From assembly GCF_000027125.1 (NCBI RefSeq), contig NC_017626.1: a stretch of DNA of 64,000 bases; one strand, given 5' to 3'. The DNA comes from Escherichia coli 042 (GTDB lineage Bacteria; Pseudomonadota; Gammaproteobacteria; Enterobacterales; Enterobacteriaceae). Positions 27,978-35,512 of this stretch are shown piece after piece (the stretch's first letter is position 1; every line of letters starts with the position of its first letter). The translations under genes and the position numbers were made by a program. The notes beneath the pieces are model-generated. The model did not search any database, had not been told where the DNA came from, and saw only the letters and a program-made list of their open reading frames with translations.

Positions 27978-29186
27978 TTAAAGGGAGCCATGCGCCTCAC
28001 GCAACACTTTCTGCTCTGGCTGACGAATCGTCGTAGAGAGCGCCAGTGACAGAATCAGCAGGGCGAAAATCACGTAGAAGGTCACATAGAAGCCGCCAAA
28101 CAGTGAGGCGATAATCGACCCACAAATGCTGCCGATACCGAAACCGAGATAAATCACACCGTAGTTTTTCGCCAGGTTATTGAGGCCGAAGAACTCACTG
28201 ACCAGTGACGGGAACACCGTGATAGTGCCGCCAAAGTTAAACGCCACGCAGGCAATCGCTGCAAAGAACGTCACTGCATTCAATGGTGCAAACAGCAGGG
28301 CCGCCATACCCACCAGCGAAATCACCTGACCAATAGTGATAACACGGATACGGGCGATTTTGTCAGACAGTATCCCCAGAACCAGACGACCTGAAAGGTT
28401 GGCGATGGAAATAACAGTGACTGCATTAGCTGCGGAAACCACATCAAGGTGTGCCAGACTTTGGGCGATATCTTTCGCTACTCCAATCACGTACAGACCG
28501 CTCATGCAGGCAGTCAGGAACATTACCGCTAACATCCAGTACTGCGGTTTACGCATCGACTCTGCCAGCGTGTAATCTTTCTCCACCACACCATTGCTGG
28601 TTTTCACTTCCTGTTTTGGTGCGTCTTTCATTAACGTTGCGCCGAAAACAATCATCACCAGCGCAATCGCTCCCCAAATCACAAAGGTTTTTTCCAGACC
28701 CACCGTTTCGAGCAGCTGCGTGTCGATAAATTTGAAACCCAGGCTACCCAGACCATAAGAACCGATAGCGAACGCGGAGATCAGACCTTTACGCTCCGGG
28801 AACCACTTCACGCAGTTTGAGAGCGTCAGCAGGTAGCCCGCACCATCCGCCAAACCGACCAACACACCGGCGCTTAACCACAGCATCATCAGGTTGTCAG
28901 AATGCGCTGTCAGGAAGAAGCCTAATCCCAGCAAAATGCCGGAAGCCATAGTGACGCGTTTAACGCCAAAACGTTCCTGCAATTTGCCCGCAACAGAAGA
29001 TGAAATTGCCAGCCCCAGACTTAACAAGCCGAAAGAGAAAGCGACCTGGCTTACCGGCGCATCCAGCTTGGCAGAAAGCGCGCCGTTAAACAGGCTCCAG
29101 GTATAAACCGACCCAAGGGCAAACTGGGTAATGATAGTACCGATGAGTGTCAACCAGCGGGTACGCTGATAATTTGAAGGTGTCAT
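27978..29186 (-). CDS. yhjX: MFS transporter YhjX (oxalate/formate antiporter-like), 402 aa
   Basis: ORF track 27978..29231; start placed at ATG 29184-29186 (MTPSNYQRTRWLTL...). Confidence 0.85.
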   Translation of the reverse strand: MTPSNYQRTRWLTLIGTIITQFALGSVYTWSLFNGALSAKLDAPVSQVAFSFGLLSLGLAISSSVAGKLQERFGVKRVTMASGILLGLGFFLTAHSDNLMMLWLSAGVLVGLADGAGYLLTLSNCVKWFPERKGLISAFAIGSYGLGSLGFKFIDTQLLETVGLEKTFVIWGAIALVMIVFGATLMKDAPKQEVKTSNGVVEKDYTLAESMRKPQYWMLAVMFLTACMSGLYVIGVAKDIAQSLAHLDVVSAANAVTVISIANLSGRLVLGILSDKIARIRVITIGQVISLVGMAALLFAPLNAVTFFAAIACVAFNFGGTITVFPSLVSEFFGLNNLAKNYGVIYLGFGIGSICGSIIASLFGGFYVTFYVIFALLILSLALSTTIRQPEQKVLREAHGSL

Positions 29187-29414
29187 GGCAGTATTCCTGC
29201 AGTAATAAAAAGGAAAAATCTCTGCTGACAACCATAACGAAGTGCACTTTATGCCTGGGGAAAAACGGCATGAAATGCCATCAGAACGGAATGAAATGCC
29301 TTAGTTCAGGAATGAATGACGTGACAATTATTCACCAAATTTATTATTTGGTAAGTTAGCACCCACTATCGCCACAACTGCTGTTATTCAATGGTTTTAA
29401 TTGTGACTGTTACG

Positions 29415-30119
29415 TTAAAATCTGGCACTAACCCCCATCGTATACAGATAGTCGCTATTGTTAGTGGTATTTTCTGCCTGAGATAGCGCCGCATAGGCGG
29501 CAATATTTTGATTGAGCAACATATCAGCGCCTACGGTGACATCCAGCCAGTTGCCGTTCTGGTTTGTCGCCGTCATCCGGCTCAGGCCTGATTGCGCCTT
29601 CCAGATATTCTCGCCAAATTGCTGGTTATAGCTGATTTGCGCCCAGGGTCGGAGATCGCCAAGCCGGGAGTCAACACGCCAGCCTAAGGTACTCACGCTG
29701 GCATGCCATAACGGATCGGCCAGCGTGGTAGTACTGTCGCCAAACTCGTTATACATCGAGGTGGTTGTGCCATCGTAATGTAATGCCGCGACCGGGCCGG
29801 TTGTAACCTGCTCATATAAAGGAAAATTCCAGCCCATACTCATACTGCTGGTCACATCCACAGGGGTTTCTTCCGCCAGATTGACTTCCAGTCCCAGCGC
29901 CCTTTGGCTACTTTGAATACGTTGCGACAAAATATCGTTGTAATCAGGTTGATGATCGCTATCCCAGGTGTAACGCTCTGTGGAATGTCCGGGTTGCGTA
30001 TCAACGATATATTCTTGTTGCCAGGCGTAAGCTGTGTTGAGAAAAAAGGCACTGATTACCACGCTCACCAGCAGGCTTAGCTGCCAGCGACCACCGCTTT
30101 TTTTTATGATCATTAACAC
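29415..30119 (-). CDS. yhjY: YhjY, autotransporter beta-domain-like outer-membrane protein, ~232-234 aa
   Basis: ORF track 29415..30119; signal peptide and C-terminal ...YTMGVSARF; start may be 2 codons downstream. Confidence 0.8.
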   Translation of the reverse strand: MLMIIKKSGGRWQLSLLVSVVISAFFLNTAYAWQQEYIVDTQPGHSTERYTWDSDHQPDYNDILSQRIQSSQRALGLEVNLAEETPVDVTSSMSMGWNFPLYEQVTTGPVAALHYDGTTTSMYNEFGDSTTTLADPLWHASVSTLGWRVDSRLGDLRPWAQISYNQQFGENIWKAQSGLSRMTATNQNGNWLDVTVGADMLLNQNIAAYAALSQAENTTNNSDYLYTMGVSARF

Positions 30120-30270
30120 GACTCCAGGGAAGAGCCGAATTCGGCAATATTATTGTCATTGTATGAAGGATATCGGGCATAGTAGCCCTGTATTAAATAT
30201 TGACTTTTTCACCGATGCGTCAAGAAAAGCGGCTGAAATTTTTACGATCGGGTACATAGCGAGGGAAAGT

Positions 30271-30834
30271 ATGGAACGTTGCGGCTGGGTGAGTCAGGAC
30301 CCGCTTTATATTGCCTACCATGATAATGAATGGGGCGTGCCTGAAACTGACAGTAAAAAACTGTTCGAAATGATCTGCCTTGAAGGGCAGCAGGCTGGAT
30401 TATCGTGGATCACCGTCCTCAAAAAACGCGAAAACTATCGCGCCAGCTTTCATCAGTTCGATCCGGTGAAGGTGGCTGCAATGCAGGAAGAGGATGTCGA
30501 AAGACTGGTACAGGACGCCGGGATTATCCGCCATCGCGGGAAAATTCAGGCAATTATTGGTAATGCGCGGGCGTACCTGCAAATGGAACAGAACGGCGAA
30601 CCGTTTGCCGACTTTGTCTGGTCGTTTGTCAATCATCAACCACAGGTGACACAAGCCACAACGTTGAGCGAAATCCCTACATCTACGCCCGCCTCCGACG
30701 CTCTATCTAAAGCCCTGAAAAAGCGTGGTTTTAAGTTTGTTGGTACCACAATCTGTTACTCCTTTATGCAGGCATGTGGGCTGGTGAATGATCATGTGGT
30801 TGGCTGCTGTTGCTATCCGGGAAATAAACCATGA
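30271..30834 (+). CDS. tag: 3-methyladenine DNA glycosylase I (Tag), 187 aa
   Basis: ORF track 30034..30834; start placed at ATG 30271 (MERCGWVSQDPLYIAYHDNEWGVP...). Confidence 0.9.
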   Translation: MERCGWVSQDPLYIAYHDNEWGVPETDSKKLFEMICLEGQQAGLSWITVLKKRENYRASFHQFDPVKVAAMQEEDVERLVQDAGIIRHRGKIQAIIGNARAYLQMEQNGEPFADFVWSFVNHQPQVTQATTLSEIPTSTPASDALSKALKKRGFKFVGTTICYSFMQACGLVNDHVVGCCCYPGNKP

Positions 30835-31271
30835 TTCGGGAAGCGCAACGTTCAGAACTCCCCGCGATCCTCGAACTGTGGCTGGAAAGTACAACCTGGG
30901 GGCATCCCTTTATAAAAGCGAATTACTGGCGTGATTGCATTCCGCTGGTGCGGGATGCCTATCTTGCCAACGCGCAAAACTGGGTCTGGGAAGAAGACGG
31001 TAAGCTTCTCGGTTTTGTCAGCATTATGGAAGGCCGATTTCTGGCTGCAATGTTTGTCGCACCGAAGGCCGTCAGACGCGGTATTGGTAAGGCGCTAATG
31101 CAGTATGTGCAGCAGCGCCATCCCCATCTGATGCTGGAGGTTTATCAAAAAAATCAACCGGCGATAGATTTTTACCATGCGCAGGGTTTTCACATTGTCG
31201 ACTGCGCATGGCAGGATGAAACCCAACTACCCACCTGGATTATGAGCTGGCCGGTGGTTCAAACGCTGTAA
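30831..31271 (+). CDS. yiaC: GNAT-family N-acetyltransferase YiaC, 146 aa
   Basis: ORF track; ATGA overlap with tag stop. Confidence 0.85.
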
Positions 31272-33573
31272 GTGTCAGTTCCGGACCGTTGTATTTTTCT
31301 AGCCATGCCAAAGCCGTGTTGCCTGCACAACCATTCCCCAGCCGCGAGCTGGGGAGGTCTTTAGTCAATACATTCACTGCGCCGTTTTTACAAATGCCGT
31401 CAGCGGTTAAATCCAGATCCGGCCATGCCCCTTCGTGAATACAAATCACGCCAGGTTTAATTCCCTCGCTAATGACTGCCCCGGCAAGAATTTGCCCGCG
31501 TGCGTTCCACAGCCGAACAGTATCGCCATCTTGTATGCCGCGCGCCTGAGCATCGTCAGGATGAATGGTGACAGGCTCACGATTTGCCACCGCGTACAAT
31601 TCGCGCAGAGAACTGTAATTCAGCTGGCTGTGCAGACGATGTGCCGGATGAGCAGAAAGTACCTGCAACTGTTCCGGTTCGGCATTGCCCTGCCATTCGT
31701 CCGGCTCCAGCCACATTGGATGCCCAGGGCAATCCGGATAAGCGTAATCGGCAATACGCTGCGAGAAGATTTCAATCTTGCCGCTGGCGGTTTTTAATGG
31801 ATGCGCCTGCGGATCGCGGCGAAAATCGGCGAAGCGAATAAACCGCTCGCTGTCCGGGTTTTCCGGCATCTCAATTAACTGGTTGGCTTGCCAGAACTCA
31901 GCAAATGGCGGCAATTCAACCTGCTGGCTTGCCCCGCGCTGCCGGGCAACGTTATAAAACGTTTCCAGCCATTGCAGCTCACTTTTTCCTTCCGTAAACC
32001 GCGCATAGCCGCCCTTCTCCCAACGTTCACTCAACTCGGCAAAGACATCAAAATCATTACGCGCTTCATAACGTGGCGGCACCACTTGCTTCATCGGCAC
32101 CAGATGCTGATTACTGTAATCGCCGGTCATGGTGAGATCATTACGCTCAAACGAGGTGGTCGCAGGCAGAACGATATCCGCGTGTTTCGCCGCCGCCGTC
32201 CAGAAGCATTCAGAGATCACCACCAGCTCCGGTTTTTGCCAGGCACGGATCAGGCGATTGGTATCCTGATGATGAGTAAAGTTGGCACCGCCCGCCCACC
32301 AGATAAAACGAATATCCGGGAAATGTCGGTCCATACCGTTATGTTGATATGCGCCACCCGGGTTTTCCAGTGCTTCAACAATGCGGGCAACAGGGATTTT
32401 ATCCACCGCATCGGTGCCGCCAGGCAAGCTGCCCTGCATGGAAGAGAGCACCGCAGCGCGGCGCGTGGGGTTACCACCATTGGCAAAATGGTAAGAAAGT
32501 CCAAAACCGCCGCCGGGTGTGCCGATTTGCCCCAACATTGCCGCCAGCGTGACGATCATCCAGTGTTTTTGCTCACCAAACTGTTGGCGCTGCATTCCCC
32601 AGCCAGCCATCAGCATGGTAGTATTTTGATGGAAAAGAGCCGCCAGTTCGCGGATTTTCGCTGCGCCAACACCACAAATCTCTGCCGCCCATTCGGCGGT
32701 TTTCGCTATTCCGTCGCTCTCGCCCAGCAAATAAGAGGCGAAGACGGCATAACCTGTGGTGCAACGCGCCAGAAACGCTTCGTCGTGCCAACCATTTTCC
32801 ACCAGCGTATGGGCGATCCCCAGCATCAGCGCAACATCGGTGCCCATGTGCGGTGCCACCCACTCCATTTTATCGCCAAAGAAATCGACGGTTTCCGATC
32901 GCATTGGATCAATGCAGATCAGCTTTTTCCCGCTGTCACGCAGTGCGGAAAAGTAAGAAAGCCCCTGCTCATCGGATGCATTCCACGCAATTTTCAGCGT
33001 ATTGAGTGGGTTAGCACTCCATAGCACCACGACATCGCTATGTTCCAATACCAACGGCCAACTGGTTTGCTGTTGATAAACTTCGCTGCCCCCCACGACA
33101 TACGGCATGATCGCCTGTGCTGCACCGGTCGAATAATCCCCCAGATGCCCGGTATAACCGCCTGCAAGCGCCATATAGCGTTGTAATAATGTCGAGGCCT
33201 TATGCAGCACGCCGTTTGAACGCCAGCCGTAGGAACCAGCAAAAATCGATGCCGGACCATAAGCCTCACGAATGCGTTTATGTTGTTGGTGAATAAGCTC
33301 CAGCGCCTCATCCCAACTCACACGAACAAATGCATCCTGCCCGCGAATGCCTTGCGGGTTTTCCGGTGACGCGAGAAAGCCTTTGCGCACCATTGGAAAT
33401 CGTACCCGCGTATTGCTGTGAACCTGGTCGCGAACCGCGCTCTGCAAGGAGTTTTCCATTCCTGTGACTAACGCGCCACGCGAGCTAAACACGGTTTCGC
33501 CGTCGGTTTCAACCAGCATGGGCCCCCAGTGGGCGGCAGTCAGAACGGAATATCGTGAGGATGAGTTGGCCAA
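31240..33573 (-). CDS. bisC: biotin sulfoxide reductase BisC (molybdopterin oxidoreductase), 777 aa
   Basis: ORF track 31240..33573. Confidence 0.9.
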
Positions 33574-33725
33574 ACCGAAGACTCCTGAAAGGTTAGATGT
33601 ATTGAGCAGTTAAATATTACTTACAAATTTCCGAGTATTCCCAGGAATAATCTTCATGTTCACGCGGCATAATCTCCCGCCACGGAACCCGTGGCAAAGA
33701 ATAAAAAGTTTATTAAGGATTAACA

Positions 33726-34385
33726 ATGAAGAAACGTGTTTATCTTATTGCCGCCGTAGTGAGTGGCGCTCTGGCGGTATCTGGCTGCACAACTAACCCT
33801 TACACTGGCGAACGCGAAGCAGGTAAATCTGCTATCGGCGCAGGTCTGGGCTCTCTCGTTGGCGCGGGTATTGGTGCGCTCTCTTCTTCGAAGAAAGATC
33901 GCGGTAAAGGCGCGCTGATTGGCGCAGCAGCGGGTGCAGCTCTGGGCGGCGGCGTTGGTTATTACATGGATGTACAGGAAGCGAAGCTGCGTGACAAAAT
34001 GCGCGGCACTGGTGTTAGCGTAACCCGCAGCGGGGATAACATTATCCTCAATATGCCGAACAATGTGACCTTCGACAGCAGCAGCGCGACCCTGAAACCG
34101 GCGGGCGCTAACACCCTGACCGGCGTGGCAATGGTGCTGAAAGAGTATCCGAAAACGGCGGTTAACGTGATTGGTTATACCGACAGCACGGGTGGTCACG
34201 ACCTGAACATGCGTCTCTCCCAGCAGCGTGCGGATTCCGTTGCCAGCGCGTTGATCACCCAGGGCGTGGACGCCAGCCGCATCCGTACTCAGGGCCTTGG
34301 CCCGGCTAACCCAATCGCCAGCAACAGCACCGCAGAAGGTAAGGCGCAAAACCGCCGTGTAGAAATTACCTTAAGCCCGCTGTAA
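33726..34385 (+). CDS. yiaD: OmpA-family lipoprotein YiaD, 219 aa
   Basis: ORF track; lipobox LAVSGC, glycine-zipper region, C-terminal OmpA-like domain. Confidence 0.9.
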   Translation: MKKRVYLIAAVVSGALAVSGCTTNPYTGEREAGKSAIGAGLGSLVGAGIGALSSSKKDRGKGALIGAAAGAALGGGVGYYMDVQEAKLRDKMRGTGVSVTRSGDNIILNMPNNVTFDSSSATLKPAGANTLTGVAMVLKEYPKTAVNVIGYTDSTGGHDLNMRLSQQRADSVASALITQGVDASRIRTQGLGPANPIASNSTAEGKAQNRRVEITLSPL

Positions 34386-34488
34386 TCCCTTTCATGCCAG
34401 GTGATGCAGAAATCACCTGGCATTCTTCAGTTTTCCTTCATCATATTTCAGGCTAAGGTGATCGCCTTATCAGTGAATGGAGAGAAGC

Positions 34489-35463
34489 ATGAAGCCGTCC
34501 GTTATCCTCTACAAAGCCTTACCTGATGATTTACTGCAACGCCTGCAAGAGCATTTCACCGTTCACCAGGTGGCAAACCTCAGCCCACAAACCATCGAAC
34601 AAAATGCAGCAATTTTTGCCGAAGCTGAAGGTTTACTGGGTTCAAACGAGAATGTTGATGCCGCATTGCTGGGAAAAATGCCGAAACTGCGTGCCACATC
34701 AACGATCTCCGTCGGCTATGACAATTTTGATGTCGATGCGCTTACCGCCCGAAAAATTCTGCTGATGCACACGCCAACCGTATTAACAGAAACCGTCGCC
34801 GATACGCTGATGGCGCTGGTGTTGTCTACCGCTCGTCGGGTTGTGGAGGTAGCAGAACGGGTAAAAGCAGGCGAATGGACCGCGAGCATAGGCCCGGACT
34901 GGTACGGCACTGACGTTCACCATAAAACACTGGGCATTGTCGGGATGGGACGGATCGGCATGGCGCTGGCACAACGTGCGCACTTTGGCTTCAATATGCC
35001 CATCCTCTATAACGCGCGCCGCCACCATAAAGAAGCAGAAGAACGCTTCAACGCCCGCTACTGCGATTTGGATACACTGTTACAAGAGTCAGATTTCGTT
35101 TGCCTGATCCTGCCGTTAACTGATGAGACGTATCATCTATTTGGCGCAGAACAATTCGGCAAAATGAAATCCTCCGCCATTTTCATTAATGCCGGACGTG
35201 GCCCGGTGGTTGATGAAAATGCACTGATTGCTGCATTGCAGAAAGGCGAAATTCACGCCGCCGGGCTGGATGTCTTCGAACAAGAGCCACTGTCTGTAGA
35301 TTCGCCGTTGCTCTCAATGGCCAACGTCGTCGCGGTACCGCATATTGGTTCAGCCACTCATGAGACGCGTTATGGCATGGCTGCCTGTGCCGTGGATAAC
35401 TTGATTGATGCGTTACAAGGAAAGGTTGAGAAGAACTGTGTAAATCCGCACGTCGCGGACTAA
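34489..35463 (+). CDS. ghrB: glyoxylate/hydroxypyruvate reductase B (GhrB/TkrA), 324 aa
   Basis: ORF track 34477..35463; start placed at ATG 34489 ([14 protein letters not shown]...); NAD-binding motif GIVGMGRIG. Confidence 0.9.
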
Positions 35464-35512
35464 GCCGCGACTGCGTGGAGTAAAGCCCGATAATCGCTCG
35501 GGCTTTTACTCT

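Follow-up and report, generated by a model that had tools for sequence, protein, structure and literature searches.

Coding sequences of convergent genes overlap at 58–75 pairs in E. coli (PMC2174442, PMC4161906), and among the convergent overlaps of at least 5 nt, phase 123:132 is the most frequent, accounting for 49% (PMC2174442). In this phase, codon position 1 lies opposite position 1, position 2 opposite position 3 and position 3 opposite position 2. Other described systems bear on how such a junction may work. Bidirectional intrinsic terminators of convergent genes would normally occupy the position at which the tail-to-tail genes yiaC and bisC meet, Rho is known to terminate antisense RNA, and excludons are neighbouring genes on opposite strands whose transcription overlaps, with mutually exclusive expression as the defining outcome.

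Here, we analysed the junction of yiaC and bisC within a window of 64,000 nucleotides from E. coli 042. Compared with the known prokaryotic convergent overlaps, it shows no essential difference: here, too, genuine coding sequences read from opposite strands have common 3′ ends that are kept between species. Its 32 bp exceed the very common 4-bp class. Both genes are real, their 3′ ends are shared across strands and both frames impose constraint. Low novelty and probable conservation had been anticipated from the sequence, and indeed the overlap is found in all sampled complete loci of Enterobacteriaceae and is already annotated, thus ordinary rather than new. The reading that we favour, at a probability of roughly 85%, is that of an old, frozen dual-coding overlap of two genuine genes, in which each transcript ends inside the partner gene and RNase III-cut double-stranded RNA (dsRNA) is a by-product. 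As a convergent overlap with dual coding, the pair is clean, well conserved and of textbook type, and its significance beyond bookkeeping is small.

Geometry of the overlap and identity of the genes

The features of the junction are as follows, with coordinates referring to the window.

30271–30834, + strand: tag coding sequence, DNA-3-methyladenine glycosylase I (NCBIfam PRK10353: score 432.6 bits, cutoff 349; RefSeq)
30831–31271, + strand: yiaC coding sequence, 146 aa, GNAT-family peptidyl-lysine N-acetyltransferase (ORF list, PRK10562, RefSeq/K-12)
31240–33573, − strand: bisC coding sequence, 777 aa, TTG start, biotin sulfoxide reductase (ORF list, TIGR00509, RefSeq)
31240–31271, both strands: 32-bp convergent overlap of coding sequences, phase 123:132 (coordinates, ORF list, raw sequence)
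31269–31271, + strand: yiaC stop, TAA (TGA in Enterobacter), inside the BisC L768–T769 codons (CTT ACA; CTC ACG in Enterobacter)
31240–31242, − strand: bisC stop, TAA, read as TTA on the + strand (TGA in three genera), inside the YiaC I137–M138 codons (ATT ATG or ATC ATG)

The original prediction of a convergent overlap of about 32 bp at 31240–31271 proved exact. According to the raw sequence and the ORF list, yiaC (30831–31271, +) and bisC (31240–33573, −) share precisely these 32 bp at their 3′ ends, and both predicted stops, at 31269–31271 (+) and 31240–31242 (−), read TAA in the raw sequence. The suggested comparison with reference annotations gave the same overlap in RefSeq, both for strain 2017-02-2CC and for K-12 MG1655 (yiaC at 3713652..3714092 and bisC at complement 3714061..3716394). 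Within the overlap, each gene contributes its stop, the nine complete codons before it and 2 nt of a further codon, encoding YiaC I137 (in part) to L146 on one strand and BisC L768 (in part) to S777 on the other; the phase was derived from the coordinates. Upstream of yiaC lies the co-oriented tag gene, whose TGA overlaps the yiaC ATG (ATGA, 30831–30834), and yiaC is the last gene of this tag–yiaC pair, which stands tail-to-tail with bisC. The region was found in 5421 of 5426 complete E. coli genomes. The best match to window positions 30600–31900 among these 5,426 genomes has 98.7% identity over 1.3 kb, and the YiaC nearest to that of the window (99%) comes from 'Escherichia sp. MOD1-EC7003'. 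The window thus probably belongs to a lineage for which this collection contains no nearly identical complete E. coli genome.

Homologues of yiaC and bisC occur in many genera, and both proteins were compared with their families. YiaC scored 268.4 bits against the NCBIfam equivalog PRK10562 (cutoff 125), its residues 1–145 aligning with positions 1–145 of the 146-position profile. BisC, which belongs to the molybdopterin guanine dinucleotide S/N-oxide reductases, scored 1097.8 bits against TIGR00509 (cutoff 1017.55), with residues 13–775 matching positions 1–768 of 772, and its alignment with solved DMSO and TMAO reductases reaches to 2–5 residues from their C-termini. When YiaC was aligned with YjaB (2kcw), a similar remainder of 11–12 residues was left beyond the aligned block in both proteins. 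In comparison with distant GNATs, M138 and W140 of YiaC are nearly invariant, and the length variation is confined to the 3–15 residues after W140. Since both proteins are full length with respect to their families, neither stop is misplaced and neither gene is artificially extended. No evidence was found that the true stop of either gene lies elsewhere, the observation that the original prediction had named as speaking against it.

An annotation artefact, in which one true stop would lie elsewhere as a result of, for example, a sequencing error or recoding, could draw on the frameshift and stop-loss variants of YiaC in public data. These rare E. coli variants (P0002, P0004 and P0006), which may be real mutants or assembly errors, measure 193–202 aa. 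P0002, with a single member, has lost the stop by a change of TAA to AAA, while P0004 (11 members) and P0006 (41 members) carry frameshifts inside the overlap, and the DNA changes in all three would alter the BisC C-terminus as well. However, such variant clusters comprise 1–41 members against 2472 in the main cluster of 146 aa. Furthermore, the stops were taken straight from the sequence, their recomputation at 13 independent complete loci gave the overlap each time, the family matches of YiaC and BisC extend to the final residues, and purified recombinant YiaC is an active lysine acetyltransferase (PMC10891134). The artefact reading is effectively refuted by these observations, and we assign it a next to negligible probability.

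The length of the overlap calls for no special explanation. In phase 123:132, antisense stops occur once per 41–48 codons, and the chance that an ORF runs at least 10 codons into the partner gene is about 80%. At 32 bp, the overlap is shorter than the typical run-in of about 41–48 codons in this stop-poor phase, and its length is within chance expectation. What stands above chance is the cross-genus conservation of the yiaC–bisC overlap and its dual-coding signature.

A further reading frame lies antisense to bisC, namely a 378-aa ORF at window positions 31888–33024 (+) in the directly opposite phase 123:321, according to the ORF list and the coordinates. It looks like the usual stop-poor 'shadow' ORF and not like a gene.

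Conservation and dual-coding signature

A scan of genome contigs for YiaC provided five Escherichia loci, and wider taxa were reached by protein search and exact-protein look-ups. With both stops recomputed from the raw DNA, the overlap was present in all 13 complete loci (window included) from nine genera, with a length of either 32 or 38 bp. Twelve of the 14 loci compared have the 32-bp form. Within Escherichia, these are the window and five other lineages, including E. albertii and E. whittamii, and beyond this genus the same length was found in Salmonella, Citrobacter amalonaticus, a Raoultella-like organism, Enterobacter ludwigii and Pseudescherichia. The 38-bp form occurs in Kosakonia and Lelliottia. 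Here, BisC Leu768 is encoded by CTG, a synonymous change that removes the yiaC stop; the stop is shifted by 6 nt (two codons) into the preceding BisC Leu-Thr pair, and YiaC measures 148 aa. The longer overlap in these two genera is thus due to a synonymous leucine change in bisC that relocates the stop of yiaC. The position of the bisC stop is the same at every locus; it reads TAA where the YiaC I137 codon is ATT, and TGA where this codon is ATC.

The alignment of 14 taxa shows that both reading frames constrain the bases they have in common. Invariant columns make up 72% of the overlap, compared with 42% of the flank that encodes only YiaC and 53% of the flank that encodes only BisC. For yiaC, 9 of 11 third codon positions (82%) are invariant inside the overlap against 3 of 50 (6%) outside (Fisher p = 6e-7), and for bisC the corresponding figures are 5 of 11 (45%) and 1 of 39 (3%; Fisher p = 1e-3). 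The variable tail of YiaC (residues 141–146) lies opposite the conserved BisC segment LTAF(E/D)PPA, the variable BisC residues 776–777 lie opposite the conserved I-M-x-W of YiaC, and each stop codon is embedded in conserved codons of the partner gene. Combined, these features form a clear dual-coding signature. The locus may also be useful for genome-recoding projects, which are bound to respect both frames.

During this comparison, a record named Escherichia coli SCPM-O-B-8794 was found to encode a YiaC only 89% identical to that of the window, and its overlap sequence groups with those of E. whittamii and Escherichia sp. E1V33. The species label of this record looks doubtful.

The upstream junction between tag and yiaC varies between lineages. 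In Escherichia, tag encodes 187 aa and the two genes share the 4-bp ATGA. In Salmonella, Citrobacter, Enterobacter, Kosakonia, Lelliottia and Pseudescherichia, tag encodes 192–193 aa and overlaps yiaC by 20–23 bp (loci L008–L014, 3442–4023 against 4001). A single-nucleotide indel immediately ahead of the yiaC start codon appears to account for this difference. Dickeya again shows a 4-bp tag–yiaC overlap, there with a GTG start.

Origin of the arrangement

The closest outgroups found were Dickeya, with 44% YiaC identity, and a second relative with 41%. In both, tag–yiaC sits beside glyQS and is followed by a spacer of about 470–550 bp (about 550 bp in Dickeya), with no adjacent bisC. Because these outgroups keep tag–yiaC without a neighbouring bisC, the overlap appears, among the sampled taxa, only in Enterobacteriaceae. 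In an ancestor of this family, bisC would have come to sit directly downstream of yiaC and thereby created the overlap. With Dickeya and one relative representing the outside of the family, the overlap presumably dates from this juxtaposition, and the event may have been a gain or a loss of bisC. Two intermediate relatives of YiaC were also considered, but neither was informative, since the assembly behind P0163 is riddled with frameshifts and the contig that carries P0141 measures just 1.2 kb. Therefore, the joining of bisC can be placed no more closely than between Dickeya and the Enterobacteriaceae that were sampled. Once formed, the overlap may well have been frozen, as yiaC and bisC could be separated only by a duplication and most point changes would harm one protein or the other.

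Hairpins near the junction and intrinsic termination

Two potential RNA structures flank the overlap, each lying inside the coding sequence of the partner gene.

31334–31356, + strand: 9-bp GC-rich hairpin in the bisC coding sequence, 63 nt beyond the yiaC stop, with a weak U-tract, GUCUUUAG (pattern scan)
31174–31212, − strand: inverted repeat inside yiaC with arms 31174–31184 and 31202–31212, 28 nt past the bisC stop (fold)

It had been predicted that the overlap leaves no room for a terminator between the genes, and this holds: there is no intergenic DNA, a pattern scan found no intrinsic terminator between yiaC and bisC, and no convincing one is embedded nearby. A bidirectional intrinsic terminator of the kind expected between convergent genes is absent, as there is no spacer and the hairpins come without A- or U-tracts and without covariation. 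A GC-rich hairpin with a direct U-tract was found on neither strand. The overlap itself does not fold better than shuffled sequences on either strand (z = +0.2 and +0.6). An Rfam scan of positions 29000–35500 (E ≤ 1) returned as its sole match a spurious archaeal snoRNA at 34425–34474, with 22 bits against a gathering threshold of 50. Elsewhere in the window, a strong terminator-like hairpin with a 12-bp stem and 6 GC pairs lies at 34394–34423 (+) between yiaD (33726–34385) and ghrB (34477–35463); this is a conventional intergenic terminator, unlike anything at the yiaC–bisC junction.

Conceivably, the intrinsic terminator or a 3′-protecting stem-loop of each gene could sit in the coding sequence of its partner, at 31334–31356 and 31174–31212, respectively. 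The hairpins lie 28–63 nt downstream of the relevant stops, and the one on the + strand was a hit of the terminator scan, with a fold more stable than those of shuffled sequences (−18.3 kcal/mol, z = −2.3). Moreover, about 20% of the E. coli genes in convergent overlaps have predicted rho-independent terminators inside the partner (PMC2174442). However, the U-tract is weak in the first hairpin (GUCUUUAG) and absent in the second, whose tail on the − strand transcript is A-rich and not U-rich (UAAAAAUC). Across 14 taxa, pairing reached 89.7% against 88.3% in shuffles for 31334–31356, with no excess covariation, and 86.0% against 84.3% for 31174–31212. The observed number of paired cells was attained by 58 and 82 of 500 shuffles for the two hairpins, and the covariation score by 138 and 37 of 500. 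Compared with these column-shuffled controls, no selection on the structure of either flanking hairpin is evident, and the conservation at both is explained by the encoded protein motifs. In addition, bicyclomycin (BCM) data point to Rho-dependent and not intrinsic termination on the + strand, and no curated Term-seq 3′ end lies here. The two hairpins were thus rejected as embedded terminators, neither exceeding its shuffled controls in the 14-taxon alignments, and we consider such a role improbable.

Rho-dependent termination of the tag–yiaC transcript

As the junction offers neither a spacer nor a convincing intrinsic terminator, the transcripts of yiaC and bisC must each run into the partner gene before they end. 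On the + strand, published data indicate where this occurs.

31272–31523, + strand: untranslated tag–yiaC read-through, antisense to bisC, ending in a published Rho-dependent region

Adams et al. (2021) reported a termination region that responds to bicyclomycin and lies antisense to bisC, with its peak position at MG1655 3714344 (+) (PMC7815308). Reads upstream and downstream of this position numbered 90 and 23 in untreated cells and 60 and 112 in the presence of BCM (PMC7815308, Supplementary file 2), which corresponds to a Rho score of 7.30 (p = 5.5e-14) at a coarse resolution of ±800-nt windows (PMC7815308). The position maps to about 31523 in the window, 252 nt beyond the yiaC stop. Over 31272–31523, the C/G ratio is 1.38, and the best 78-nt window, at 31410, reaches 1.93, which is a moderate enrichment in C over G. 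No curated Term-seq 3′ ends are present at MG1655 3713600–3714199 (Adams et al.), and the SMRT-Cappable-seq supplements mention neither yiaC nor bisC.

The tag–yiaC transcript thus resembles known Rho-terminated antisense RNAs, as it is likewise untranslated past the yiaC stop, moderately rich in C over G, and reads through within bisC in a BCM-dependent manner. In contrast to other Rho termination systems, it is known at the level of a coarse region, and on the + strand only. According to the published BCM data, the tag–yiaC transcript ends in a Rho-dependent manner a few hundred nt into the antisense strand of bisC. By analogy, the bisC transcript might likewise end Rho-dependently on the yiaC side. 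The locus could accordingly serve as a test case for Rho-dependent 3′-end formation.

Antisense RNA and the excludon question

The original prediction further held that the arrangement implies transcriptional interference or antisense transcripts. Published E. coli data bear out the antisense or overlapping transcripts, through the Rho region antisense to bisC, a duplex captured by p19 and a list of excludons.

31237–31259, both strands: p19-captured, RNase III-generated 21-nt dsRNA duplex, listed as 'bisC yiaC' (Table S3, PMC7373196)

The strands of this duplex, AUUAUGAGCUGGCCGGUGGUU (184 reads, 2.16 RPM) and CCACCGGCCAGCUCAUAAUCC (90 reads, 1.06 RPM; PMC7373196), are perfectly paired with 2-nt overhangs, and their abundance is near the inclusion threshold of 1 RPM (Huang et al. 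2020, PMC7373196). Both strands match the window exactly and at one site only, and all but 3 nt fall within the overlap. Such dsRNAs have been reported at most genes, with thousands listed, and 3′ overlaps are far poorer in them than 5′ overlaps (PMC7373196). Antisense transcripts at yiaC–bisC therefore exist at a low level. The complementary 3′ ends of the yiaC and bisC transcripts pair at this low level and are cut by RNase III, and the resulting dsRNA is regarded as a by-product of the architecture and not as a dedicated switch.

The yiaC–bisC pair is also one of 165 convergent excludons of MG1655 according to ExcludonFinder 2025, a list drawn from 58 transcriptomes with a share of at least 50%. 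For genes with overlapping coding sequences, such a listing follows automatically whenever both are expressed. The locus therefore shares with excludons its place on the published list and a captured RNase III duplex from the overlap, but with regard to their mutually exclusive expression, the likeness lies solely in a trivial, CDS-driven overlap of transcripts, and the dsRNA is marginal.

A functional excludon would involve reciprocal repression of the two genes, brought about by colliding RNA polymerases and by RNase III cutting the paired 3′ ends, with the overlap conserved by selection. Its place in the RNA-seq-derived 'excludome' of MG1655, an RNase III-type duplex almost wholly within the overlap, the strict conservation across genera and the lack of a terminator insulating yiaC from bisC are all consistent with this view. 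However, listing is trivial for overlapping coding sequences, the duplex is near the 1 RPM threshold and one of thousands in a class of overlaps that is poor in dsRNA, the dual-coding constraint suffices to explain the conservation, and literature searches gave no reciprocal expression data. To our knowledge, no functional link connects DNA repair and lysine acetylation with the reduction of biotin or methionine sulfoxide. We therefore consider a functional excludon unlikely, and any transcriptional interference with a regulatory consequence at this locus is putative.

Conservation of the exact overlap is nevertheless also predicted by selected regulatory coupling, and its neutrality is presumed. 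That antisense coupling under selection keeps the overlap exact, dual-coding inertia not being the sole cause, seems to us very unlikely. If it were true, read-through limited by Rho in both directions (from tag–yiaC into bisC, and from bisC into both yiaC and tag), combined with cutting of the paired 3′ ends by RNase III, would under some stress set expression of the DNA-repair/acetyltransferase pair and that of the sulfoxide reductase against each other. A noncontiguous operon of bisC … yhjY with tag–yiaC nested opposite was also considered and set aside, as the three operons of this kind that have been described in MG1655 do not include it. Under the preferred reading of a frozen dual-coding overlap, the yiaC–bisC pair may be useful for asking whether excludon calls that arise trivially from overlapping coding sequences mean regulation.

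Additional p19 duplexes have been reported within bisC (PMC7373196), for example UAUGCGCCACCAGGGUUUUCC at MG1655 ~3715169, the exact 21-mer of which is absent from the window. This site lies about 1.1 kb beyond the yiaC stop and well past the Rho region, which suggests further antisense transcription inside bisC.
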